A model generated the notes under the pieces. It was given only the letters and a program-made list of their open reading frames with translations, was not told the DNA's origin and searched no databases. A stretch of 64,000 nt of DNA from a virus. The translations under genes and the position numbers were made by a program. The stretch lies in IMG/VR virus record IMGVR_UViG_3300033145_000849, positions 64,267 to 128,266 of that record. One strand, written 5' to 3'. Of the stretch, positions 26,294-45,130 are shown piece by piece. How positions within the stretch are numbered: the stretch's first letter is position 1; each line of letters opens with the position of its first letter.

Positions 26294-28420
26294 TTATTCC
26301 TTTACTGGATTTTCAATGGGGACTAGCCCCTTTGCTTGTGCATTTTTCAAATATCGATCTGCGATTGCTTGTCCAGAGCCCATTCTAAGCTTTAGAAATC
26401 TTTCTGCAACCTGCTCGATAACATTACGGTCATATCTTTTCTCATCTTTAACTTTTGTCTTACCTGTATTGTCTTGAACCGCTGTTGGATCATCTACCAT
26501 CCCTGCTGGATTATTCGATAAACCAGAATTTAGTTTATCAGCGATCTTAACGATGTCAACTTTGCTGTCTAGGTCCTTTAATGTCTCATCCAAAATCTCT
26601 GTAGACTTCTCTTTTAATTCATTTAATTGAACCTCTTCTCCAGCTAGACAATGGAAATCTGCCACTCTTTGAATCTTAAGGGAACGAATTTCCTCTACTG
26701 CTTTAGCAAGAGAATCTTCTAAGGTATCAACATCTTTATGGAGATACCCGTTTTCCTTACGGCCAGTTTCAAGCTTGTCTTCTACTGCTTTGACAGCATC
26801 TTCTGCATTTTTGTCAGATACAGTCTTAGAGTCTTTTAACTGGTTTTCAAGTTCTGCAATGCGATCTTCCAAGGGCTTGGTATCGCAACTATGTTCTACT
26901 CCGCGTTCACTCATGGCACCTAAAATGCCATTATAAAGTTGGGTTAGTTCACCATCAGAAAAGTGGTCAAAATAGTCAAGAATAAACTGTCCAAGACTTA
27001 CTTCAACAATAGTATCTTTTACTTCATCCTCAAAGGTACAACCAAGGCGTTTTGCTTTCCGGGTAATACAATCGACTACTGAAGTTTCAACCTCGTTCTT
27101 TTTAGCATAAGCCATGGCCGATTTGGCATGGGCGCGATCATTGACAGGATAACTTCTGTTAGGACCACAGAAAACAGAGTCTGCAAGCTTCTTTCTAGAA
27201 TCTGCAGTTAGTTTTGCATCCTTAAGAGAAACGATATCCTCGTCTTCTTTAAGGTCTCCCTGTAGAGCGTCTGCTACCATAGCAGCATACTCTACTCCCC
27301 ATCCATCTTCTCCAACGATTTCATCGTATTCGTCGCCCCAAAAGAGTTTAACAGGGTTCTCTTCGTCTTGAGTCTCTGTATTTTTGGGGGTAATTTGTTC
27401 GTCCAATAACTGGAAGAATTTTTCTTCCTCTAGGTCTTTGTGCTCGTCGATAAGCTTTGTGACCATATCCTTCAAGTTCTCTACGTCCTTGTATTTTTCA
27501 GATGCGAGTTTGAAGGCATTTTCAAAAGTCATTATAACGTCCTCCTTGGTTAGGTCTTGTTGTTGATATGAATCTATTATCAAGCCCACTTCAGGTATGA
27601 GACCAAGTGTAACATCATTATCTAAATGTACAAAGTCTTGTACTCCCGCTATATTAACTTCAATTACACGGGAATGTCTATCTGCAGGCTTGTTAACGAA
27701 TGAATACTCATCATAGACTAGGTCTCCAGCTATTAAAACAGCTTTCTTACCATCATAGATCTGTCCAGGCTTATGGTCACAGGGCCCTTCATCTTCTGCC
27801 CAGTCCTGTTTACATACAGAACAGACAGCCTGATTAGTGCTAGCCCCTACGGAACCGGTTAGATATCTACCATCAACAACCTTTTTAGCTGCATCAGGAT
27901 CAGAGATATCTGCAATTAGTTCAATATATCCAAGACCTTCGTAAGAAGGATCGTCTACAACCTTAGCATCTTCAATGAAATAGCGACTTGCTATATCAAA
28001 GCTTTCACTAAAAGACAGTTTACCTTCAATAAAGGCATCTAGGAGGGCTGAACTAATGGCGGTTTCACAGTGGTCTTTAACTTCGGTTGCATCTACCCGA
28101 TGTCTAAAACCCTCTGAAATATCTATATAACTAGCTTTATAGACTCTTCCAATAGCGTCATTGTGGCTATCGTGATGAATAAGAATAGGCTTATTGAACT
28201 GATCAGTCCAACTAGCTGTTCCTGCTCTCATTTTACTAGGAAGATAAAAGCCATTGTTTCGTGTAGTAAGGCCAGCGTGAGTAGCGGCAATACCAATTCT
28301 TAGAGATGTACTAGCGGCAGGATGAGTAGCATAGAAGTCTCTAATCTGATCTGGAACGATAGGTTTGAACGACACTTGGTCAGTAAACCTAACAAAATTA
28401 TCAGGATTCTTCTTTGCCAT
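26294..28420 (-). CDS. Prohead protease/scaffold
   Basis: PILIHHD..AIGR, GRYLTGSVG, CSVC..CDH, EYSFVNKPAD; acidic coiled-coil C-terminus; internal LTADSRKKLADSVFCGPNRSYPVNDRAHA module (DUF6582-like, from memory). Confidence 0.75.
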   Translation of the reverse strand: MAKKNPDNFVRFTDQVSFKPIVPDQIRDFYATHPAASTSLRIGIAATHAGLTTRNNGFYLPSKMRAGTASWTDQFNKPILIHHDSHNDAIGRVYKASYIDISEGFRHRVDATEVKDHCETAISSALLDAFIEGKLSFSESFDIASRYFIEDAKVVDDPSYEGLGYIELIADISDPDAAKKVVDGRYLTGSVGASTNQAVCSVCKQDWAEDEGPCDHKPGQIYDGKKAVLIAGDLVYDEYSFVNKPADRHSRVIEVNIAGVQDFVHLDNDVTLGLIPEVGLIIDSYQQQDLTKEDVIMTFENAFKLASEKYKDVENLKDMVTKLIDEHKDLEEEKFFQLLDEQITPKNTETQDEENPVKLFWGDEYDEIVGEDGWGVEYAAMVADALQGDLKEDEDIVSLKDAKLTADSRKKLADSVFCGPNRSYPVNDRAHAKSAMAYAKKNEVETSVVDCITRKAKRLGCTFEDEVKDTIVEVSLGQFILDYFDHFSDGELTQLYNGILGAMSERGVEHSCDTKPLEDRIAELENQLKDSKTVSDKNAEDAVKAVEDKLETGRKENGYLHKDVDTLEDSLAKAVEEIRSLKIQRVADFHCLAGEEVQLNELKEKSTEILDETLKDLDSKVDIVKIADKLNSGLSNNPAGMVDDPTAVQDNTGKTKVKDEKRYDRNVIEQVAERFLKLRMGSGQAIADRYLKNAQAKGLVPIENPVKE

Positions 28421-33650: not shown

Positions 33651-36600
33651 CTAGAACTTTCTTCTCTTAGGAGCTGAGGGTCTTCTGGGGCTCATTCCTA
33701 TCCGTTTTCTAGCATCATTTGATGCCTGTTGCATACTTCTAGACTTGGGTCTTGGAGCATCATGTCCAAATCCTGGCCAGTTCCATATCTTAACCCCAGC
33801 CTCTTTGTTTGTATGAGCTGCAGGCAGATCTGGCTTCGAAATAGTGTTTACATTAGCAAAATCAGCCCTTCCAGATTGAGGCTTATGAGATTCTGCTGAT
33901 ATATGCTTTCCAGTGTCACCATCTATCAATCCTATACCTGGTGAATAGGCAATAGTATTATCATACTTAGGTTTGCCAAATGGTGTCTTTTCTAAAGTGA
34001 AAGCCACTAATGCTAAGTTAACAGCATCTAGAACATGGTCTCCTACTCTTGTATTCTCTTGTTCATATACTGGCATTCCGGCCATTGTCATACGCTTAAC
34101 AATATATCCTAAAAGAGCAGAAGTAAACTTATCATCTGACTTGGGATACTTAATAGTACAGGTTTCGAACCTTCTTACAGAGTTTTCAACTAAGAAAGGT
34201 TTCGCCGGTTTCTTAACGAGCTCTTTCGTAAACAAATCGTGGGTTTCTATTGTTCCACCAAAGTCATAAGCTTTAACTATTCTGGAAAGCTTAGAGTCTG
34301 GATGAGACTTGCCTTTAGTTGCTATGGAGTCAAATCCAAACTTTCTTAAGACTTCATATTGTGTAGCTCCAAAACCTCTATCTATGTAGATTGTGAAAGG
34401 ATTCCAGAGTCGGTTATACTCTGCAACTTTTTCACAAGCAGCCAATTGGGTATAGTCACCCCTACTAACAATCTGTTTATCTACAAGATAGAAAAGACCA
34501 TTTGCTGGATCGTAACCTACTACAACAATAGTTACGCCTACCTTTCTATCGTTCCAATCTACACCCATACTATAGTGCCAATTTGGATTAACGGTTTGTT
34601 CACTATACTTGTACTCTGATTGTGCAATCTCAACATACTTAGCTTGATAAACGCCTTCTTCTTGCTCACCAAACTGAGCTAGAACCTCATGTTTATAACC
34701 ATCTTCTGTAAGCTGTTCATGGAAAAAGTCTTCAAGCTCATCACTCCAGTTTGGATTGATTTGTGAAGGATAATGAAACTCCTTGAATATTCTAGAATTA
34801 CAAGTGGTATAGAAATGTTCTCTCTTACCAGTTGGAGTTGAAGACATCCAAACAGTAGCCTTAGGATGGTTTGTAATGATAGCAGACGCGGCATTTACAT
34901 CATCAGCACAAAGCATATCTGCCTCATCAAAGATCAACATACTAGCATCCTGACCTCTTACGGACCCAGCACCTTGTCCTGATCTAGTACCAGCAGTAAA
35001 ACCTCTAACCCTAGAACCATTAGCTAATTCCATAGCATAGTTAGGTGCCTTTACATTTCTAGTAACAGAAGCACTAAGCAAAGGATTGCCTTGAATCATA
35101 CCTTGAAGTCTAGAGAATATTAACTCGATTTGAGATTGGAATGGAGCTATCACAACTACTTTAAACTTAGAATGAGTAAACATACCATGTAGCATAGCTA
35201 TACATAATGCTTCGGTTTTTCCCGAGTTATGGGTTAGGATTCCATTGGCAATAAAATTATGATTATTTTTAACTTCAATATCATATGTTTCTTGTTCTCC
35301 AAGATATTCTATCTTTGAGACATAGTCCCATAAAATATCTTTTTCTGTCTTGCCATATTTATCTCCAGTGCTATCTGTTATTTTCATTGCAACAGAACAT
35401 GCCGTCTCTTTCCCTTTTACAGGTCCAATATTGTTAAGAAAATTTATTACCCCGTTTTTGTTAGAAACGACATATCTGTAACCACAATCTTCTTGTTTGA
35501 TATATCCATGAACACCAAATCTCCATAATAGACGTTGGATATCTTGAACTAATAGTTTATTTTCTTGGAGAACACCAATTTCGGTCCTATAGGTTTCTCT
35601 ACCTGTACGTTTAAATGAAGAGACATATCCATCTGCAGACCATAATCGATTCATAAAAGCAGCAATTTGTTCTTTGGGCGCTTCAAATATAGCTTTTGGA
35701 ACTCTCTTATCTGGACCACGAATATCTCCTAGTCCATGCTTAAATATAATTTCTCTTACAGGATTGGGTTGTCGGCGGCCATTAGAAATAATCAGATCAA
35801 AACCATTACCTTTTGGATAAGGTTTTACCTCGGAACCAAAAGATTTACATAAACTAGTAAATTCGTTTAAATATTCTTCAGTAATATTAGTAAACTTGGC
35901 CGATTGTTTAGGAGCACAGCTTCCATCAGCGATAAAATAGCCTAATAGTTCAGGTAATCCCAAGGGCAATGGTTTCGTACCAAAAACTGGTTCTACAATT
36001 GGAACTGCTATCTTATGTCCTACCTGTAGTCCAGAGCTAATAGTTGACCAATGACGAGGTAGTTTCTCTATGGTATATCCATTTTTATAATCACAGAAAC
36101 GGCTAATAGACAGGAATGGATGATTATTAGTACATTCAATTTCGTGTCCAAATTTTGTCCTAATTCTATAAACTGGCTTAGATCCACTGGACCAAGAATC
36201 AACAACAGTATCAGATTCTAATTTATAAGTACTTGTATTAACAGAGAAAAGACTGTCTCCAGCTCGAACTTCTTTGATTGATACCACTTTGCCACTAGTA
36301 AGTTGGACTAAAGTATTTTCAGTTAGGCACTGTCTACCCAATCTGAAGGCTTTACGCTTACTAGAACATCTTAACATTTGGGCTTGATAAGGTCTGTGGA
36401 AAGGAGCCTTTCCCATCTTTGCCACTTCTTCATCATATGGATTAGATTCTTCAGGTAAGGAACCATCGTCTGTCATTCGTTTCCAAACTGCACCTTCTGG
36501 ATCAAGACAGTGCCAGTCTAAAAATTCTGCTGCCCATGTAACTGGATCTAACATAGATATAGCGATCTCGGGATCGCCACCTACACTAGCTAAAATATCA

Positions 36601-36731
36601 TCTGAAAGATATGCTTCTGGGATACCAAAACAAGGAACTCTAAAGTTGTCTCCTCTTTTAAGATTGTGTTTCTTAACATAACCTTTTACACAGTCTTTAC
36701 AGATCCCATCACATTGCCTAAGGTCTATCAA
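33651..36731 (-). CDS. terL: Terminase large subunit (intein-containing)
   Basis: After splicing: Walker A GRQSGKT, Walker B LIFDEAD, SSTPTG, nuclease MGVDWN and DHVLDA. Confidence 0.93.
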   Translation of the reverse strand: MIDLRQCDGICKDCVKGYVKKHNLKRGDNFRVPCFGIPEAYLSDDILASVGGDPEIAISMLDPVTWAAEFLDWHCLDPEGAVWKRMTDDGSLPEESNPYDEEVAKMGKAPFHRPYQAQMLRCSSKRKAFRLGRQCLTENTLVQLTSGKVVSIKEVRAGDSLFSVNTSTYKLESDTVVDSWSSGSKPVYRIRTKFGHEIECTNNHPFLSISRFCDYKNGYTIEKLPRHWSTISSGLQVGHKIAVPIVEPVFGTKPLPLGLPELLGYFIADGSCAPKQSAKFTNITEEYLNEFTSLCKSFGSEVKPYPKGNGFDLIISNGRRQPNPVREIIFKHGLGDIRGPDKRVPKAIFEAPKEQIAAFMNRLWSADGYVSSFKRTGRETYRTEIGVLQENKLLVQDIQRLLWRFGVHGYIKQEDCGYRYVVSNKNGVINFLNNIGPVKGKETACSVAMKITDSTGDKYGKTEKDILWDYVSKIEYLGEQETYDIEVKNNHNFIANGILTHNSGKTEALCIAMLHGMFTHSKFKVVVIAPFQSQIELIFSRLQGMIQGNPLLSASVTRNVKAPNYAMELANGSRVRGFTAGTRSGQGAGSVRGQDASMLIFDEADMLCADDVNAASAIITNHPKATVWMSSTPTGKREHFYTTCNSRIFKEFHYPSQINPNWSDELEDFFHEQLTEDGYKHEVLAQFGEQEEGVYQAKYVEIAQSEYKYSEQTVNPNWHYSMGVDWNDRKVGVTIVVVGYDPANGLFYLVDKQIVSRGDYTQLAACEKVAEYNRLWNPFTIYIDRGFGATQYEVLRKFGFDSIATKGKSHPDSKLSRIVKAYDFGGTIETHDLFTKELVKKPAKPFLVENSVRRFETCTIKYPKSDDKFTSALLGYIVKRMTMAGMPVYEQENTRVGDHVLDAVNLALVAFTLEKTPFGKPKYDNTIAYSPGIGLIDGDTGKHISAESHKPQSGRADFANVNTISKPDLPAAHTNKEAGVKIWNWPGFGHDAPRPKSRSMQQASNDARKRIGMSPRRPSAPKRRKF
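35226..36329 (-). mobile_element. Intein with LAGLIDADG endonuclease in the TerL Walker A motif
   Basis: LGRQ|CLTENT...CTNNHPF...LGYFIADG...LWSADG...TYDIEV...ANGILTHN|SGKT; 368 aa. Confidence 0.95.
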
Positions 36732-36758: not shown

Positions 36759-37244
36759 TTAAATTCTACCCCATGCCTTGTTTGCTCCAGCCCGAGCCAA
36801 TGCATTAAAACCATTGGATGCTTGTGCATATGACTGGCCAATAAATCTGGACGCTGTGCCTGCCATGGCATGAGCTGCCATTCCTGCAGCCTGACCTCTT
36901 CCTAATCCCATTCCTTTAGGACCCATTCCTCTATATACTCCTGCGCCTCTTTGTCCAAGTCGCGTTGCACCAAGAGCACCTGCTCCTAAAGCCATGCCAC
37001 CTAAAGCTCCACCTATAACACTGGTATCGTTAGAAAAGGCACCGTATGTACCACCAGCAACTCCACCCATAGCAGCAGAGAGACCAGTATTACTCATACC
37101 ACGCATGTAACCAAGACCTCGAGCCCCTAGCATACCGGCTTCTCCTGCGGCGGTCTTCCACCCACCAGCTCCAATCAAACCTGCTGATGCATCAGTAAGA
37201 CCTAGTCCTGCTTTACTTGCCAACCCTCTCATCTTATTAAACAT
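36759..37244 (-). CDS. Gly/Ala-rich membrane-type protein (glycine-zipper-like)
   Basis: AAMGGVAGGTYG, VIGGALGGMALGAGALG. Confidence 0.6.
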   Translation of the reverse strand: MFNKMRGLASKAGLGLTDASAGLIGAGGWKTAAGEAGMLGARGLGYMRGMSNTGLSAAMGGVAGGTYGAFSNDTSVIGGALGGMALGAGALGATRLGQRGAGVYRGMGPKGMGLGRGQAAGMAAHAMAGTASRFIGQSYAQASNGFNALARAGANKAWGRI

Positions 37245-37256
37245 TAAAAATTCTCC

Positions 37257-37820
37257 TTACCTATAATAAGGCGAGTAGGACATTAGTGCTTCGTTTCCTA
37301 AAGCTGACCTACCATTTATTTTAGAATTTTGAAGGGCCTGGAAGCTTCGTTGTCTCATAGTAGACATGGTTCCAAACCGATCTAATACAGGTGTACCCAT
37401 TTCTAGTCTAGCATGTTTCTTTAGATATTCATTGGTAAACGGCCTGAAGAGCTGCTTGGTCTCTCCACCCGAAGCATAGAATGCTCCAAGGCCTGCTCCT
37501 GCAGCAAGACCAACACCTGCACCAATTACTGCCGCAGATGTACCCATAGCACTAAGTGCAGCATTGAAAGCATAGAACGTTCCAATTTCTGAAGCTGCTC
37601 CCATTGCTGCTCCACTTACTCCACCTTCTTGATATCCTTGAGCAGCTGCCATTAGTGTAAAAGCTGGACCAATAAGTCTCCCAAGACCCTTGCCGCTAAG
37701 ACCCACCATGTCTTTAACGCCTCTCATTCCAGCCTGATGCATTGAACTTCCCATATATGTCTTAACAAGTCCTCCCGATCCAGCGGCAGGTCTACTTGCA
37801 ACAGATCCCATTATAGCCAT
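37257..37820 (-). CDS. Gly/Ala-rich membrane-type protein
   Basis: AAVIGAGVGLAAGAGLGAF hydrophobic segment. Confidence 0.6.
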   Translation of the reverse strand: MAIMGSVASRPAAGSGGLVKTYMGSSMHQAGMRGVKDMVGLSGKGLGRLIGPAFTLMAAAQGYQEGGVSGAAMGAASEIGTFYAFNAALSAMGTSAAVIGAGVGLAAGAGLGAFYASGGETKQLFRPFTNEYLKKHARLEMGTPVLDRFGTMSTMRQRSFQALQNSKINGRSALGNEALMSYSPYYR

Positions 37821-38359
37821 TAGTGTCTCCCTCTATGTAGGCCTTGTACTAATCCTCCAGCACTACCTGCTAAGGCACGAAAATCTCCACCCATTCCTGG
37901 TGCGAAACCACTTGAAGAACCTCCAACAGCTTGCAAGTATGCTTCTCGATCTTCTGTAGAAACCCCGCCGCCAGGTGCTCCACCAGCAATTACTCCATAC
38001 CCTGCTGCTAGTCCACCTCCAGCCAATAATGCTGTCTTCGGATTCTTTAGTGCCCATCTTCCTATACCAAAACCTGCTTTACCTATTCCTATACCAGCTT
38101 TAGTACCCATCTTGGTTGCTCCCCAACCCAATTTAGCCATTCCCCCAACACCAATACCTTTTGCTATTCCAAAAGCTGACCTTGTTGTAAGAGCACCCAC
38201 TCCAAGTCCCATTGCAGCCCCAGCTACAGCATCTCTAACTCTTCCGGTAGTCGAAGCTTGTTCTGACATACCTCCACCTACGGCTCCACCTATAAGGCCA
38301 CCAACCGCCATTCTACGAATACCGCCACCTACCATAAATTTACCAGCAGCTAATAACAT
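37820..38359 (-). CDS. Gly/Ala-rich membrane-type protein (glycine-zipper-like)
   Basis: VGGLIGGAVGGG, AGAAMGLGVGA, LLAGGGLAAGYG. Confidence 0.6.
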   Translation of the reverse strand: MLLAAGKFMVGGGIRRMAVGGLIGGAVGGGMSEQASTTGRVRDAVAGAAMGLGVGALTTRSAFGIAKGIGVGGMAKLGWGATKMGTKAGIGIGKAGFGIGRWALKNPKTALLAGGGLAAGYGVIAGGAPGGGVSTEDREAYLQAVGGSSSGFAPGMGGDFRALAGSAGGLVQGLHRGRH

Positions 38360-40639
38360 TTATACTCCTCCACCTAGCTTCTTATCACAGTGTGTCACAT
38401 GGCCTCCAGTAGGTCTAGTGTGACTTCTACCACCATTTCGAGCAGCTTCCCAAATCTGAGCCTGTGTCGCTCTAATAGTCTTTGCTGATTCTAAATTCTT
38501 TATACGTAAAGATTCTCTAATTTTTATTATTTTTTGTAACTCAAGATTGTCAGAATTATAATTAGTCGGTGCTTTTCCAAGGGTCTTTTTAAAAACTTTC
38601 TTTCTAATCTCATAGTGAGCCATCATCATGTCTTTTGTTGATTCTCTCATAAATTCAACACGTTTTTCAGCTAGTCCATAATCTACAACATGAGCTACTT
38701 TTTCTCTTTTATTCCAAATTGTATTTGTAGGAGATATGTCTGGATTCCAGATTCCTCGTTCAGTTAATTCTTTTACAGCTCCACTCTCCATAGATTTTTC
38801 TGCCATTCTTACAGCTTTTAAATCTCCTTGTTCCAATAATTTGGCCACAGGAGTTCCTTTCATAAGTTCCATATATAAAGAATCGCCCTTTAGTCCATAA
38901 ACCGTAGGAGCAAAAGCTGTTTCTTCAAGGCCTTTCATCATTCGAGCCTCTTTTTTCAAATTAAAACCAGACAATAACCAATCTGCAGGCTTATCTACAG
39001 CGGAGGGGTCTTCAAAAACTTCTCTAAGTGGCCTAGTTTGTTTTTTTACATAAGAAAAAGTTTGGCCCTTATATTCTGTCTGCATACGATAAACATCTGA
39101 CCATCTTCCCTTACCAATCCGTTCTATTATAGTTCCTTGATGCAGTGCCTTTTGAAAACCTCGTCTTCTTAATAGGTTAGGAATAGTAACTCCTAATCTT
39201 GTTGCTACTCCTTTTAAGGCATCAAAACCGCTACCAAAGTCTGTAAGAATTTTACGAAGCACTGGGGCTAAACCACCGTGTCTTAATCCTTCTATTGTAT
39301 TATATTTATCGTCAAATCCGCTAAACCATCCATCTGAAGCTTGTCTTATAGGCTCTATTGCAGACCTTATCTTTCCTTTCTGATAAGATCGAAGAAAAAG
39401 TTCTTCTTGAGGCATAGTTAAATTGTGGGAAGGCATAGCACCCAACTTACCTTGTGCAAAAGACTTAGGAACTCTATCTATTAAAACTTTTATATTCCGT
39501 GCTTCAGCTGCTTCATGAAAAATAAACATTTTAGAAATATCTTCTGTAGTTGTCTTCTCTATCGATTTCATTGAAGCAAACCCTGCTTCGACTTCTTTTA
39601 TAGAAATACCTACATCTTTTGATATCTTACTCATGAGCTCGGATTGAGACATGTTTTTAAGTTCTGATCTAAAAATTTTCTGTACCTCTCCAAGACCTTC
39701 TTTTAAACCTCCCAGGATCTTTTTTGAAAGAGTTGGATCAACATAAGAACGACCAGGTACATATCCTTGTTTTTTAATATTTTTAACGAAAAGATCTTCT
39801 GCAGAACCACCTTTGATCGCTTTTTGTATCCAAGATTCTGGAGCAAGAGAAAAAGTACCCTGTAATATGTCTTTGGCTTCACCAGGAGGAGCTACTTTAA
39901 GTTCAACACCTAGTCTTTTGGCAAACTGTGAAACAGTATCGGTTTCAGCATATTTGGCTAATCCTCGGATTTCGGTAACAGAAAACCCACGAGTCTTAGG
40001 TGAAGGTCTAAACATTCTTCCTACAATCTGGCCTGCTCGTTGAAACATACCTTTAAATCCACTTCCAAAGTCGGTATTCTGTTTTCTAAGCTTACCTGCA
40101 AGGCCTTTGTGGCTTAAACCCTCTATTGTGTTGTATTCATCGTCTTTACCAGAGAAAACAGCAGCACCAGCTAGTATTGCTGCAACTCCTCCAGCTGCTA
40201 TTGCAGCTCTTTTTTTAGTCCAAAAAGAGGAAGAGATTGCCGCGATCGGGGGTGCAAACAGCTCTTCTCTAACAGGAAGGTTTTGTTTACTAAGAAAAGC
40301 TTTCCATCCCTCATCTACTGCTTTTGGTGTATAGGCTTTTGTTTCCCTAATACCCATATATAGAGATTCTGGAGACCTTATTACTTCAGGTTCTGCCATC
40401 GATGTAACCTTAGCAATATATTCAGCAATATTAGAAGAAAATGTTCTAGTGTAAGATCTGTATTCTTTAGGAGAAAAGACTTGAGCAGCAGTTAAAGGAA
40501 GAGACATCTGCCCTTTAGGAACAGTAGTTTTTAAAACAGGTAAGTCTTCTGTTAGTTTACGAGCAGCACTAAGACTAGAGATATCACGAGCTGGTAACCC
40601 TGCAAGCATTAACTGTTGGTTAATTTTGTCCCAGGCCAA
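38360..40639 (-). CDS. Modular protein with two 34-aa repeats and a C-terminal Ser/Thr-kinase-like domain
   Basis: IGKGRWSDVY (Gly loop), YVKK, KKEARMM, LYMELMKG, NPDISPTN, VVDYGLA. Confidence 0.75.
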   Translation of the reverse strand: MAWDKINQQLMLAGLPARDISSLSAARKLTEDLPVLKTTVPKGQMSLPLTAAQVFSPKEYRSYTRTFSSNIAEYIAKVTSMAEPEVIRSPESLYMGIRETKAYTPKAVDEGWKAFLSKQNLPVREELFAPPIAAISSSFWTKKRAAIAAGGVAAILAGAAVFSGKDDEYNTIEGLSHKGLAGKLRKQNTDFGSGFKGMFQRAGQIVGRMFRPSPKTRGFSVTEIRGLAKYAETDTVSQFAKRLGVELKVAPPGEAKDILQGTFSLAPESWIQKAIKGGSAEDLFVKNIKKQGYVPGRSYVDPTLSKKILGGLKEGLGEVQKIFRSELKNMSQSELMSKISKDVGISIKEVEAGFASMKSIEKTTTEDISKMFIFHEAAEARNIKVLIDRVPKSFAQGKLGAMPSHNLTMPQEELFLRSYQKGKIRSAIEPIRQASDGWFSGFDDKYNTIEGLRHGGLAPVLRKILTDFGSGFDALKGVATRLGVTIPNLLRRRGFQKALHQGTIIERIGKGRWSDVYRMQTEYKGQTFSYVKKQTRPLREVFEDPSAVDKPADWLLSGFNLKKEARMMKGLEETAFAPTVYGLKGDSLYMELMKGTPVAKLLEQGDLKAVRMAEKSMESGAVKELTERGIWNPDISPTNTIWNKREKVAHVVDYGLAEKRVEFMRESTKDMMMAHYEIRKKVFKKTLGKAPTNYNSDNLELQKIIKIRESLRIKNLESAKTIRATQAQIWEAARNGGRSHTRPTGGHVTHCDKKLGGGV
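39224..39325 (-). repeat. 34-aa internal repeat, copy 2 (FSGFDDKYNTIEGLRHGGLAPVLRKILTDFGSGF)
   Basis: 26/34 aa identical to the copy at 40055-40156. Confidence 0.9.
40055..40156 (-). repeat. 34-aa internal repeat, copy 1 (FSGKDDEYNTIEGLSHKGLAGKLRKQNTDFGSGF)
   Basis: 26/34 aa identical to the copy at 39224-39325. Confidence 0.9.
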
Positions 40640-40648
40640 CTAATATCA

Positions 40649-42415
40649 CTACTCCTCTTTACCATCGATTAAATCATCTGGAGTTAAGGGTTGTACTACT
40701 TCTGCATCTATTATATCACTCTCTGCATGTCTCAGTTTCTTAAGTTCAACTTCTGCTTGTCTAGTAAGAAGCATTATCTTATTACGAAGTTCTGCTGCAG
40801 AGTTTGAAGGATCGTCATTACCTCTTTGTTTAAGCGCTGCTTCTCTTTTGTATTTTTCTTGTCTGTCCCCAACCATTAGCTTAACTAATTTGGTTTTTCT
40901 ATTGTTTAAGCGCTCTTTAGTGTCAAAAAAGGCGTTTGTTTCCATTTTTGTAAGAATAGTACCGTCTTTATCTACCCCAACTATGCTTTCTTGTACTAAT
41001 TCAGCATGTTTTGGTTTAGAAAGGTTGTTATTTAGTCTCCATAACATCAATTCTATCTCAGCTAGCTCTCGTACCATTTGTATTTCAGTGAATGAACTCT
41101 CATCTATATGATAGTCGTGAATATACAATCGGGTATATTCGTTCAATAAGTTTACTTCTATAAGACAATTATGAGTAACAATTCCATTGGCCAAATAGGT
41201 ATGATGATTATCAACCTCAAGACTATAGACTATGCCATCATAATCATATCGTTCAATTTCGATAGGTTCCTTATTTGGAACTTTTTCGCCATGTTTCCTT
41301 CTCTTCATCTCGGGACCATCAATAGTAGCAACATCCATACAACCGGAGATAAGATTACAAGCCCTTATCTTTAATAATCTGCTCATAGATCCTAGCATGG
41401 AGTTAAAATCAGACTTTCTGCTCCAAATTGGATAATCAATAGATAACCCGATCTCTTTAAGTTTCTGTGTAATAAATTGACTACCAGGAGAATTTCTCCT
41501 ATGATGTTCGTCTAATTGTTCCTGGGTAACCCACTTATACAAACCGTTCCATTTAACCTTCTTTGTCCCATCTGAAACAGCAATAAAACATGTTTTGGTA
41601 GTTCTAAATCTCAGAGAAAGCTCTTCTTCTGCTAACATCGCCTCTGTATTTGTATTGTAAAGACCCAATATCCAAATATCGTCAGCTTGCTCTCTTTGAG
41701 CTCTTGAAGTTATTCCAGAATACCTTTTGCTTTTGGTTTCTTTAAACAATACTGTTTTTCCTATCCTCCAGCTGTCTCCTCTTCTCATTAAATATACAGC
41801 AAATTTATTAAAAGCATTTTTGTTCCACCTTGCCATGCAAATGTGATCAACAGTACAATCATAGTGTCCATAGAGAGTCTTAATCCGGACCATTTGACCC
41901 TTATAGTCTCTACTTCCCAATTGAAAATGTGCCCCACCTCGAGAAGAATGTTCATAGCTAGAAATATAACTACTTTTACTATGAAATACAGCCACTTTGT
42001 CTTCTCCAACTTTTAGTTCTTCAATAGGAACCTGGCCTTGATTAACTGTCTGGATGAGGGTTCCTGGGGGATGACAAGCTCTACCTATTGGAGTTTTCTT
42101 CATTTTTACAAATAGACATTGAGGAGCGAAAGGACATTTTGCTCCTCCACCACAAGTTAAGGGTATCGCCGCACTTGCTCCTGTCGATAGATGAGTCAGA
42201 TGACTCTTGATTTTGTTGGCTTCTTCACGAGTAAACTCAATATCTGAATAATCATCCGGAATCAATTCCAAGAACTCGAAGAAATTGGTCTTATATTCTT
42301 TACCATCATTCTTGATAATGGTTCCATTCAACTTAATGAGATCTGTACTTTCCTTTTTAGGTTCAGCCAAAACAAAACTCCTGTTGTCCTGGAATATAGT
42401 GCGGCGCTTGCTCAA
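40649..42415 (-). CDS. Cys4 protein with intein (possible terminase small subunit)
   Basis: Spliced product has C..CPF..C...GRAC Zn-type motif and a helical C-terminus. The TerS call is positional inference only. Confidence 0.5.
   Translation of the reverse strand: MSKRRTIFQDNRSFVLAEPKKESTDLIKLNGTIIKNDGKEYKTNFFEFLELIPDDYSDIEFTREEANKIKSHLTHLSTGASAAIPLTCGGGAKCPFAPQCLFVKMKKTPIGRACHPPGTLIQTVNQGQVPIEELKVGEDKVAVFHSKSSYISSYEHSSRGGAHFQLGSRDYKGQMVRIKTLYGHYDCTVDHICMARWNKNAFNKFAVYLMRRGDSWRIGKTVLFKETKSKRYSGITSRAQREQADDIWILGLYNTNTEAMLAEEELSLRFRTTKTCFIAVSDGTKKVKWNGLYKWVTQEQLDEHHRRNSPGSQFITQKLKEIGLSIDYPIWSRKSDFNSMLGSMSRLLKIRACNLISGCMDVATIDGPEMKRRKHGEKVPNKEPIEIERYDYDGIVYSLEVDNHHTYLANGIVTHNCLIEVNLLNEYTRLYIHDYHIDESSFTEIQMVRELAEIELMLWRLNNNLSKPKHAELVQESIVGVDKDGTILTKMETNAFFDTKERLNNRKTKLVKLMVGDRQEKYKREAALKQRGNDDPSNSAAELRNKIMLLTRQAEVELKKLRHAESDIIDAEVVQPLTPDDLIDGKEE
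41168..42076 (-). mobile_element. Intein with GIY-YIG-like insert
   Basis: IGRA|CHPPGT...CTVDH...VYSLEV...ANGIVTHN|CLIE; 303 aa; insert AVYLMRRGDSWRIGKT...R...EAMLAEE. Confidence 0.85.
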
Positions 42416-42862: not shown

Positions 42863-45130
42863 CTATAACTTTCCACCATGTGTCCATTTATACCCATCTA
42901 CAGCTACTTCTAGTAGAGCTACATCGGTATTGCTACCACCATCGTCATCTAATTCAAATCTAACAAACACTTGGTCCCCTTCATAATAGTCTGATATATC
43001 AAATGGTTCAAACTCTACACTAATAATCTTGTCTGCTACTGACAAATCAACGTCACTAACAGCAACAACTTGTGCATTCTTTGCTACTACTGTCTCTGTA
43101 TTAGCTACTGTTCTTGCAATTGGAGTATGATTTGCCCCTCCTGTAGGATCTGCCACTTTTACTCCAGCAATCTGAACTGGAAGGAGAGACATAATGAAGT
43201 CAACATTAGCCCCCGGATTGCCTGTAGGCAATACTTTAGCATACATATGCATAGGGAAGGAAGTGTCAATTCCATATGGAAGAGTAAATTGAAAATGCAC
43301 AGCATCGCCATTGGTATTTAAGTTACTATTCTTGATATTGTGGTCCCACTGAGTAGGTGCTCCACCGGCTCCAACAGTATGAGTAACGTCGCCGACTGCT
43401 CCTTCTTCTCCAAAGATGTTACCTGCTGCTAGTACAGTGTGCTCGAATCTGGAATTTCCATGATAAGTATCTGTACCATCTGCATTTTTCTCAGATCTAC
43501 TAGTAGACAGTTTAAACTGTTGAAAAACCGGGGAAGTTGTAACTGTTGTAGCAATTCTTATCCTTGCCCAGTATAAATTCTTACTGTCAATAGTCTTCTG
43601 AACCCATGTTGTACCACCATCGACACCAAATCGGATATGTTCAGAAATATTGGATCTAATAAACAACTCATTGCCATACCTGTGAAACAAACTACTGTGA
43701 GTAGCCATTGTTCCAACTTCAGTCCATGCTGCACCAGTCCAAATCTCAATTGCATATGATTTTGGTGCAACTTCAGTAGTGGCTGTAGTTTGCAATACTT
43801 TAATGCCATAAAATTTAAGATTACCAGAAACTACGTTGATTCTGTTTGAACCGAATAGAATACTATGGCCGTCAGTTACTCCTTGAAAAGAGAAAGTAGA
43901 TGCAGATGCAGATTGAGCAGATGTAGAAACATCTGTTAAATTACCACCATCTGCTGCAGCTCCTGCAGTGCTATCTGTGGTGATAACGACCATGTCCTTA
44001 GTGTAGGAGTCCCCTTCACCGAAAACGGCCTCACGGCCCAACTCAGGGCTTCCTACGGCTAATTCTAGAGAGGTTACTACTGCTGGATCCCCTTCTTTCA
44101 TGTCTATATGATTAGTCCTAATTCCATCCCAATCTAAAACACTAAAATGATCGGACCTCATCTTGCTTCCAACAAGTTCTAGAATACCAGAAGCAAATTC
44201 CTGTTCTAAATGATTTGCAACACCATCTTCAACAATTACTCCTGCTCCATGTATGTTTCCTCCACTGCCCACTTTTAGACCTGTTGTAACGTCTTCTTCT
44301 ATTGTTATAGACATTAGATCTAAGTGGCCACCATCTTCTGCATATAGTCCTGTGGTCCCTTCTGAAGCTAAAGAGTTAGAGACAGTCATATTGGAACCTG
44401 AGTGTACACAATGATATCCTGTCGTTGATGTGCTAAAAATATTCGCAGAAACAATTGTACCTTGCTCAAAAGACTTCTGGCCAGTACCTGTTGGGGCGAA
44501 ATATTTAGATTCTTTAACAAATAGGCGGGAATCTAATCCACTTGCTGCTACACCTGTTTCTCCAACTGTAAACTGGCAGTTAGTTACTTCTGCATCTACA
44601 CCAGAAGCTGGAAGAACACAGATGGCACTAGTAGGTCCAACAATATTAAATCCTGCTAATGTAGCTCTGGCGTCAAGAGTGATAAAGTCATAGTCATTGT
44701 CAGTAGTAATAAGAACAGCAACGGATTGTCCACCAACCACAGTGTATGAAGGTATGGTAAATGGCTGTTCTATATATGTGCCTGGACTTACATCTATATA
44801 ATAGGGTTTTGCAGCACTAGAATCAGTAATTGAGTCACAAGCAGTTTTAATGCTGTTAAAGTCTGCAGCGGCTGTAGGGCCTACATTTAAATATTCTGGA
44901 CTTATTGAAGAAGAAGCTCCATCAATAACAATTACTCCATCAGATGTGGAAAGATGGGCATTTGTTCCATCATGATACATTTCCAGGTATATTGAATTAT
45001 TCCCTGGTGACAATAATTGGAGTTTATCCTCTACTTGTACAGTGTCTCCTGTATCACAAGATCTAAATGGCCCAGAGAAAGAATCTCCATCACTAACATT
45101 TGTCTTTACTGCTATTTTTCTTTTACCCAT
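42863..45130 (-). CDS. Tail spike/fibre-like protein with beta-helix (pectin-lyase-like) region
   Basis: ADFNSIKTACDSI...YIDVSPGTYIE beta-helix cap followed by Gly/Ser/Thr-rich strands. Confidence 0.6.
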   Translation of the reverse strand: MGKRKIAVKTNVSDGDSFSGPFRSCDTGDTVQVEDKLQLLSPGNNSIYLEMYHDGTNAHLSTSDGVIVIDGASSSISPEYLNVGPTAAADFNSIKTACDSITDSSAAKPYYIDVSPGTYIEQPFTIPSYTVVGGQSVAVLITTDNDYDFITLDARATLAGFNIVGPTSAICVLPASGVDAEVTNCQFTVGETGVAASGLDSRLFVKESKYFAPTGTGQKSFEQGTIVSANIFSTSTTGYHCVHSGSNMTVSNSLASEGTTGLYAEDGGHLDLMSITIEEDVTTGLKVGSGGNIHGAGVIVEDGVANHLEQEFASGILELVGSKMRSDHFSVLDWDGIRTNHIDMKEGDPAVVTSLELAVGSPELGREAVFGEGDSYTKDMVVITTDSTAGAAADGGNLTDVSTSAQSASASTFSFQGVTDGHSILFGSNRINVVSGNLKFYGIKVLQTTATTEVAPKSYAIEIWTGAAWTEVGTMATHSSLFHRYGNELFIRSNISEHIRFGVDGGTTWVQKTIDSKNLYWARIRIATTVTTSPVFQQFKLSTSRSEKNADGTDTYHGNSRFEHTVLAAGNIFGEEGAVGDVTHTVGAGGAPTQWDHNIKNSNLNTNGDAVHFQFTLPYGIDTSFPMHMYAKVLPTGNPGANVDFIMSLLPVQIAGVKVADPTGGANHTPIARTVANTETVVAKNAQVVAVSDVDLSVADKIISVEFEPFDISDYYEGDQVFVRFELDDDGGSNTDVALLEVAVDGYKWTHGGKL

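Follow-up and report, generated by a model that had tools for sequence, protein, structure and literature searches.

A reiterated connector peptide joins different predicted enzymes in a probable cargo protein of uncultured jumbo phages

Why would a single phage gene carry the same 34-residue element twice, each time in front of an unrelated domain? This question is raised by an open reading frame (ORF) in a 64,000-nucleotide stretch of virus DNA (positions 64,267 to 128,266 of the IMG/VR record IMGVR_UViG_3300033145_000849; hereafter the window), whose 759-residue product, P0001, was described in a first-pass annotation of the letters as a repeat-delimited effector polyprotein. Hundreds of related uncultured phages reuse the element, here called R, to join different predicted enzymes at one genomic spot. 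We propose, with a probability of roughly 45%, that P0001 represents, in this phage, a hypervariable type of polyvalent cargo protein that is encoded at a fixed locus in uncultured jumbo myophages related to 0305phi8-36 and that would be delivered by the virion and processed at R. The parts of this proposal differ in strength: a polyvalent cargo protein with R-delimited exchangeable cassettes is likely, delivery by the virion has a slightly better than even chance, and cleavage at R is put forward tentatively.

The two copies of R in P0001 occupy residues 162-195 (positions 40055-40156 of the window) and 439-472 (39224-39325). They share 26 of 34 residues and 65 of 102 bases, with different codons at 15 of the 26 shared residues, reproducing the duplication with diverged codons that had first drawn attention to the gene. 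In 200 shuffles of P0001, the best ungapped 34-residue self-match was 12, with a mean of 10. With its protein sequence conserved and its codons diverged, R is a real element under selection at the protein level. The consensus reads FSGKDDxYNTIEGLxHxGxAxxxRKxxTDFGSGW, with a module length of 34-38 residues, and D5, D6, N9, I11, G13, L14, G18, R24, F30, G31, S32 and G33 were invariant in 20 strong copies. A Thr comes after N9 and a Tyr, His or Phe before it, and R contains a near-invariant T-I-E-G. Degenerate copies have lost FSGKDDxYN and retain the C-terminal two-thirds (EGLxHxGxAxxxRKxxTxFGS). AlphaFold assigned low confidence to both copies (predicted local distance difference test, pLDDT, 33-40 in the full-length model and 34-63 in a model from 29 sequences) beside confidently modelled flanking domains, and placed one short helix in R, over GLAxxLRK. 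As modelled, therefore, R has the character of a conserved linear element in need of a partner and not of a small domain that folds by itself.

No Pfam family matched the 20 copies even at E ≤ 10, and whole-protein scans against PHROGs and NCBIfam gave no match covering R, bearing out the earlier impression that the repeat belongs to no described family. Searches by tblastn of 50,697 GenBank phage records returned nothing for the whole protein at E ≤ 1e-3 or for the first copy, R1, at E ≤ 1. Among 185,579 prokaryotic genomes, one per species, there were 41 hits to the R pattern, none of them confirmed, and the genomes yielded neither a prophage copy nor a cellular one. Neither YNTIEG nor TDFGSG occurs in any of the papers searched in full text. 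Within the 128-kb record (54% complete by CheckV estimate), R is limited to the two copies in P0001.

Outside this record the element is common. A word-indexed search found 30 related proteins, and an exhaustive HMMER search, run with all 759 residues so that the kinase formed part of the query, matched 403 cluster representatives (clustering at 50% identity) at E ≤ 1e-3 and 266 of them at E ≤ 1e-10; lengths among the 150 top-ranking ones range from 329 to 2454 residues. All 163 proteins retrieved contain at least one R: one copy in 16, two in 61, three in 45, four in 31, five in 5, six in 4 and seven in 1. When the proteins were cut at the repeats, located with a profile built from repeat copies, 571 segments in 180 sequence clusters were obtained. 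Pfam recognised a kinase, a DnaQ/RNase_T exonuclease and a staphylococcal nuclease (SNase) among these segments and little else. The labels of the other clusters were read from conserved motifs and are not family matches; they comprise a zincin-like domain (HExxE/HExxH), two ART-like types, ATP-grasp-like, PD-(D/E)xK-like and GNAT-like domains and a His-rich domain. Among 194 non-identical proteins, approximate tallies were 148 for the kinase (inflated, since the query contained one), 103 for the exonuclease and 57 for SNase, and a zincin-like domain with HExx[HE] was present in 87 (~45%).

The domains that follow R are thus variable, with 170 simplified architectures among the 194 proteins. 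Each copy in P0001 precedes an unrelated domain, as first described, and two of the outcomes that the first-pass annotation had named as contrary to it, an invariant architecture and a repeat unique to the P0001 gene, were not observed. R may open a protein and never ends one, except in P0027, which its source labels partial. It precedes most cassettes, and some adjacent domains have no detected R between them. In P0001 a hydrophobic segment (residues 145-163) stands immediately before R1, where a hydrophobic helix had been predicted. As a universal feature such a helix was rejected: at a Kyte-Doolittle value of at least 1.4, it is enriched before first copies (57 of 151) relative to later ones (40 of 289).

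R also coincides with the borders of sequence shared between family members. We compared pairs of proteins sharing at least 150 residues at 60% identity or more, with block ends internal to both proteins and no colinear continuation. The ends fell inside R in 16 of 23 cases and within 10 residues of it in 21 of 23, where uniform placement expects 2.8 and 4.3, an outcome that is partly expected since R is conserved beside unrelated domains and alignments run into it and stop. At the DNA level, most pairs among 46 loci were either near-identical or less than 70% identical, and only L011/L036 was informative; there, a 78%-identical block starts and ends inside R-coding DNA, and the flanking cassettes differ. 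R delimits blocks shared between otherwise different proteins, and the exchanged units run from R to R. The suggestion that the repeat is a recombination handle gains indirect support from these block ends. Whether subtypes of R travel with a neighbouring domain could be judged only from weak differences, too small to decide (mean identity 0.56 with the downstream domain and 0.60 with the upstream domain, versus a background of 0.53).

The genomic position of the gene is as constant as its content is variable. Our IMG/VR scan gave 46 loci, several of them near-identical duplicates of one another, and each holds one R-bearing ORF with 1-6 R copies. The gene of the large terminase (TerL) lies downstream in 43 of them, and a homologue of 0305phi8-36 gp112 directly upstream in 38; in five of the eight loci where it was missed, the contig ends within the ORF. 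A homologue of the 187-residue Gly-rich protein of the window (gly187) was found between the R-bearing ORF and TerL in 30 loci by phmmer, and its C-terminal motif was seen by eye in further ones; three loci (L032, L033 and L041) have no recognisable neighbour. Farther downstream follow homologues of 153-, 233- and 504-residue proteins, of the portal and of the protease/scaffold protein. The arrangement that the first-pass annotation had proposed to look for, variable enzymatic domains at a fixed locus upstream of terL, is therefore what these loci present. A contig end lies less than 10 kb upstream of the repeat (0.6-8.5 kb) in 31 of the 46 loci, and in 0305phi8-36 the equivalent module starts about 2 kb past the 6.5-kb left terminal repeat, so that many contigs may end at the physical genome end or at a terminal repeat; the window differs, since early genes continue upstream.

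Cultured relatives show what the locus looks like when R is missing. The portal of the window has its closest counterpart in Bacillus phage 0305phi8-36, the two being 36.5% identical (E 1e-64) across the N-terminal 46% of the query, and other close portals belong to related Bacillus jumbo phages, Moorella phage MTATph1 and Acinetobacter phage ME3. In 0305phi8-36 the block gp112-gp116 precedes TerL, and gp113, gp114 and gp116 are virion proteins by mass spectrometry according to the annotation of the GenBank record. The support that they lend to virion association of R proteins is indirect, as it concerns the locus genes of a relative that has no R protein. In Acinetobacter phage vB_AbaM_ME3, the same place is taken by ME3_11 (L092:1796-3385, annotated as hypothetical), which consists of a DnaQ-like exonuclease, a hydrophobic helix and a short basic His tail. 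At E 1.4e-28 it matches the exonuclease type found at the N-terminus of eight R proteins, and its end resembles the tails at L006, L019 and L047. ME3 gp11 and 0305phi8-36 gp112-gp116 thus share with the R-bearing loci the order of gp112-like gene, cargo or Gly-rich genes and TerL; the two phages differ in having no R copy and no extra cassettes there, and look like an unexpanded form of the locus. The simplest history would start from an ancestral protein made up of exonuclease, helix and tail, with [R-domain] cassettes inserted between the latter two. Since its phage is cultured, ME3_11 offers a practical entry point for testing virion cargo at this locus.

What, then, do the two cassettes of P0001 encode? 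The region between the copies is the domain of about 240 residues with FHEAAE...SH that had been read from the translation, and H375-E376-x-x-E379 and H405 are all invariant in an alignment of nine sequences. A model from 29 sequences reached a pLDDT of 80-98 and a predicted template modelling score of 0.72. The full structural scan gave weak matches to oligoendopeptidase F (Z 5.9), DPP III (Z 5.0), ArdC (Z 4.8) and CapP (Z 4.5), and also lists M1 aminopeptidases, lethal factor and minigluzincins, so that zincin peptidases recur. Zincins are defined by HExxH, a third ligand and their fold; this domain has HExxE, a downstream invariant His and the weak fold matches just given. From the motif and the recurrence of zincin peptidases in the scan, a zincin-like peptidase is plausible but not established.

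The domain after the second copy, R2, had been called a kinase with Gly loop, Lys, Glu, D..N and DYG, a call that the family profile upholds. An alignment of nine proteins of the same layout shows K533, E564, D634, N639 and D653-x-G655 to be invariant; the Gly loop reads GKGRWS in P0001, and G511 is the only invariant column within it. P0001 alone matched Pfam Pkinase below threshold (E 0.027, 14.3 bits for a cut-off of 31.7, profile positions 5-148 of 263), and the profile of the nine-protein alignment matched solved Ser/Thr kinases in the PDB at E 1.8e-11. The residues that define the kinase superfamily (Gly loop, Lys, alphaC Glu, D..N and a DFG-type Asp) are accordingly all present in P0001. 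AlphaFold was confident over residues 480-660, ending just past the DYG motif; the best Foldseek matches of the model were RIO1/RIO2 kinases (E ~2e-6), and NCBIfam Bud32 matches were weak (20 bits versus cut-offs of 125-174). Neither the Pfam alignment nor the confident part of the AlphaFold model of P0001 contains a complete C-lobe (activation segment, alphaF-alphaI). Because both stop early, the domain resembles the truncated kinases of the polyvalent, RIO and Bud32 types and not a canonical kinase; the predicted kinase is a minimal RIO/Bud32-like core with all catalytic residues and without a canonical C-lobe. It shares this minimal core with the RIO/Bud32 atypical kinases, among which RIO1 and RIO2 are its best structural matches, and differs from them in lacking the RIO-specific N-terminal domain and in being fused behind R in a phage protein that is probably cargo. 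The comparison with T7 gp0.7 made in the first-pass annotation stands as an analogy only. Two kinase cassettes in tandem, each with its own R in front, occur in P0078, L036 and L038.

Such combinations recall the polyvalent proteins of phages and conjugative elements. In the text of a survey of these proteins (Iyer, Burroughs, Anand, de Souza, Aravind 2017, PMC5512222), the phage ones are encoded among late virion genes, often contain zincin-like peptidases proposed to process them, and carry kinases without the C-terminal subdomain. The likeness extends, as far as that text describes them, to several unrelated enzymatic domains per polypeptide, a late-gene position, extensive mosaicism and a shared repertoire of zincin-like peptidases, truncated kinases, nucleases and ART-, GNAT- and NTase-type domains (PMC5512222). 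Polyvalent proteins combine at least two disparate activities; a zincin-like domain and a kinase are predicted in P0001, and homologues add the exonuclease and SNase. P0001 likewise lies among late and virion genes, upstream of TerL as in 43 of the 46 loci and with portal, capsid and sheath genes downstream. The R family differs in occupying one fixed locus in one phage lineage and in having a connector before most cassettes. The text of the survey describes no repeated inter-domain connector and does not use the word 'linker', its supplementary domain lists, which might name R, lying outside the comparison (PMC5512222). The only paper found with both '0305phi8-36' and 'polyvalent protein' was a jumbo-phage review. 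The polyvalent class is therefore known, and neither the R-protein family nor its constant position in 0305phi8-36-like phages nor the iterated R is described in the sources searched, among which that supplementary catalogue is not counted.

Pre-toxin motifs occur once per protein, in secreted bacterial toxins accompanied by immunity genes. In the account used here they, VENN for example, precede the variable C-terminal domains of polymorphic toxins (PMC3482391). R resembles them as a short conserved element directly N-terminal to exchangeable domains, at the borders of shared and unshared sequence, and differs in that it recurs within a protein, belongs to phages and has an unrelated sequence; no Pfam pre-toxin family was found in P0001 at E ≤ 1 or in 25 scanned homologues at E ≤ 0.01. 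As a possible cleavage or targeting signal, R may be likened to the T4 capsid targeting sequences and the propeptides of phiKZ and SPN3US, which, in the passages of the source drawn on, are short conserved peptides on diverse packed and ejected proteins (PMC5694885). Head ejection proteins of SPN3US and phiKZ are cut there at AxE/SxE by the prohead protease (PMC5694885); cutting in these systems follows a Glu, and R holds its near-invariant T-I-E-G. The differences are that those signals, as described in that source, are single and N-terminal, and that R is internal, iterated, 34-38 residues long and has Thr at P3. Nor does R conform to the T4-type signal, a single N-terminal propeptide of 10-20 residues with (L/I)xE: its Glu follows T-I.

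Under the favoured reading, then, one to seven cassettes of R plus domain would have been inserted between helix and tail in the uncultured clade, P0001 holding two, the zincin-like HExxE domain and the minimal RIO/Bud32-like kinase. The protein would enter the prohead together with the neighbouring Gly-rich proteins and reach the host with the DNA, where the chain would be processed at R and the kinase and other enzymes would act as separate early effectors. The processing enzyme may be the HK97-type prohead protease, by analogy with phiKZ and SPN3US, or the resident zincin where there is one. Packing and injection are suggested by where the gene lies, by the annotation of relatives of its neighbours as virion proteins and by what has been published on polyvalent proteins as a concept. 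R is favoured as the processing site because a protease/scaffold gene is present, T-I-E-G is like the (S/A)xE sites and a zincin-like domain occurs in about 45% of the family.

A number of observations weigh against this reading. The placing of P0001, or of any R protein, in the virion is something we infer, and R was not found in any cultured phage among the 50,697 records. With its 34-38 residues, R is far longer than the known prohead-protease sites, and T-I-E differs from the published (S/A/G)xE or (L/I)xE motif. The most persistent part of R is not TIE, as degenerate copies lose FSGKDDxYN and keep the helix-forming C-terminal part, which argues that the conserved core is more than a cleavage site. 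A cis-acting zincin as the universal processing enzyme was rejected, HExx[HE] being present in only 87 of 194 proteins; the zincin assignment itself rests on a sequence motif and structural matches of Z ≤ 5.9, and the middle domain had no Foldseek match in PDB or BFVD at E ≤ 0.001 and no usable ESM Atlas hit. A C-terminal signal common to the polyprotein and the Gly-rich proteins was dropped as evidence, the ends being alike by eye with hhalign E-values of 0.4-0.9. The block ends show that cassettes are delimited, not that DNA was exchanged by crossing-over within R, and the domain counts are coloured by the inflated kinase tally and by some cluster profiles that include the shared tail (one spurious hit in P0001). 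A predicted complex of the prohead-protease domain with R (score 0.01, mark 0.32) speaks neither for nor against binding.

The chief rival, in our estimate an unlikely one, is that R is not cleaved at all. It would be a short docking element that becomes ordered on a multi-copy partner (the inner capsid surface, the scaffold, the portal, the Gly-rich proteins or DNA), so that the chain is tethered in the head or held extended for passage through the tail and acts as one polypeptide after ejection. In favour of docking are strong conservation over 34-38 residues despite low model confidence, as is usual for binding motifs, retention of the helix-forming core GLxHxGxAxxxRK..FGS in degenerate copies, and a copy number of 1 to 7, which fits avidity. 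Some polyvalent proteins are, moreover, delivered unprocessed, such as N4 vRNAP, ArdC and TraC1, named in the survey text (PMC5512222). Against this stand the layout of P0001, a near-identical repeat exactly between unrelated enzymatic domains as in classic cleaved polyproteins, and the confinement of R to P0001 within the 128-kb record, with a partner represented by candidates only.

Less likely still is that P0001 is no cargo but a late intracellular protein, anchored in the host membrane by its helix, with R serving inside the infected cell as the binding site for some factor of the host or the phage. We regard this as improbable, even though the helix is hydrophobic (mean Kyte-Doolittle 2.0), neighbouring genes code for Gly-zipper-like proteins and virion placement is itself inferred. 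It does not account for the fixed position in a head-morphogenesis operon, between the gp112-like gene and TerL, where the genes of 0305phi8-36 are annotated as virion proteins. The repertoire of nucleases, ART-like domains, kinase and peptidase-like domains is moreover that of injected polyvalent proteins, as given in the survey text (PMC5512222). Nor was any copy, prophage or cellular, found in the 185,579 genomes. In inteins, FlhB/EscU proteins and Rhs toxins, Asn or Asp cuts the chain, and in the 20 strong copies of R, D5, D6 and N9 are invariant and a Thr follows N9; a self-cleaving R that needs no protease is nevertheless very improbable, since many degenerate copies lack the whole DDxYN part and keep the rest, no predicted fold of R could build an active site, and Pfam gave no autoprocessing family at E ≤ 10.

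To return to virion-delivered cargo, one further version of it, which we hold to be doubtful, makes R a self-sufficient cargo connector, an iterated internal signal that would both recruit the following domain into the prohead and mark the point of release by the maturation protease. If it is true, a jumbo-phage lineage could swap ready-made [R-domain] cassettes and inject customised host-takeover or anti-defence enzymes, and capsids would have a natural plug-and-play route of protein loading that differs from the N-terminal targeting sequences of T4. For polyvalent proteins in general, which have been predicted to be arrays of injected effectors, the R family gives a clean handle on how domains are packed, separated and exchanged, as most domain borders are marked by a short, conserved and apparently unstructured connector that also falls at the edges of shared blocks. 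Should R prove to be a processing or loading signal, it would make both the packaging of injected phage effectors and their processing directly testable, and it could be used to bring foreign proteins into capsids. The family is in addition a catalogue of many putative effector domains that lack annotation, from a lineage with few cultured members.

The features of P0001 and its surroundings are collected in Table 1.

Table 1. Parts of P0001 and neighbouring genes, in coordinates of the window
Feature	Coordinates	Strand	Remarks
Whole ORF, P0001, 759 aa	38360..40639	-	N-domain, hydrophobic helix, R1, HExxE domain, R2, predicted minimal kinase, tail
N-terminal region, aa 1-143	40211..40639	-	no recognised family; helical, low-confidence model (pLDDT <50)
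Hydrophobic Gly/Ala-rich helix, aa 145-163	40151..40207	-	mean Kyte-Doolittle 2.0 over 19 aa
Connector module R1, aa 162-199	40043..40156	-	R profile 75 bits, E 2.8e-24
Middle domain, zincin-like, aa 200-438	39326..40042	-	HExxE...H; motif at 39503-39517
Connector module R2, aa 439-476	39212..39325	-	R profile 70 bits, E 1.8e-22
Predicted minimal protein-kinase domain, aa 477-660	38660..39211	-	N-lobe, catalytic loop, DYG; C-lobe not confidently modelled
C-terminal tail, aa 661-759	38363..38659	-	family-wide end motif w..a.nGG+xH
Upstream neighbour, 0305phi8-36 gp112 homologue, intein-interrupted	40649..42415	-	profile vs gp112 E 5.5e-34
Three small Gly-rich proteins (179, 187, 161 aa)	36759..38359	-	between polyprotein and TerL
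Large terminase (TerL) with LAGLIDADG intein	33651..36731	-	Intein_splicing + LAGLIDADG_3
Prohead protease/scaffold homologue, candidate trans-acting processing enzyme	26294..28420	-	vs 0305phi8-36 gp123 E 2.5e-28

The start codon of P0001 is TTG, with an ATG 10 codons further downstream. Its stop codon TAA abuts the ATG of the next gene, with GGAGGA within the last codons, and the P0001 gene is translationally coupled to the Gly-rich genes in the late operon. The tail motif takes the form ARNGGRSH in P0001 (38420-38443) and was found in loose form in 119 of 186 distinct C-termini of the family; G737 and H740 are invariant in the nine-sequence alignment. The window also codes for a portal, an HK97-type capsid protein and a tail sheath.

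Among the Gly-rich proteins, gly187 matches 0305phi8-36 gp115 (E 6.4e-12) and ME3_12 (E 4.5e-9). Their extreme C-termini are very strongly conserved across phages, ending in ...ST.GLVQGLHRGRH in the 179-residue family and in ...TMRQRSLQAIQNS.xNGRxALGNEA... in the 187-residue family, and look like docking or processing signals of their own. The end of 0305phi8-36 gp114 (...LVFAMHNMR) is similar to them by eye only; the profile search missed gp114. The prohead protease domain (27611-28420) has H82, H83 and S190 invariant in 26 sequences, and an insertion in it has C200, C203, C214 and H216 invariant in the 26 homologues; this insertion is probably a zinc site, which would be unusual among HK97-type proteases. 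In the gp112-like gene, the insertion point of the intein C-terminal region is a Cys-rich motif. The presence of an intein points to an essential role of the gp112-like protein in packaging or morphogenesis; it may be the small terminase. The gene that heads the late operon, ahead of divergent early genes, encodes a 755-residue protein (42863-45130) with a right-handed beta-helix region (Pfam Beta_helix, E 6.9e-5, below the cut-off), which may be a fibre or depolymerase-like protein.

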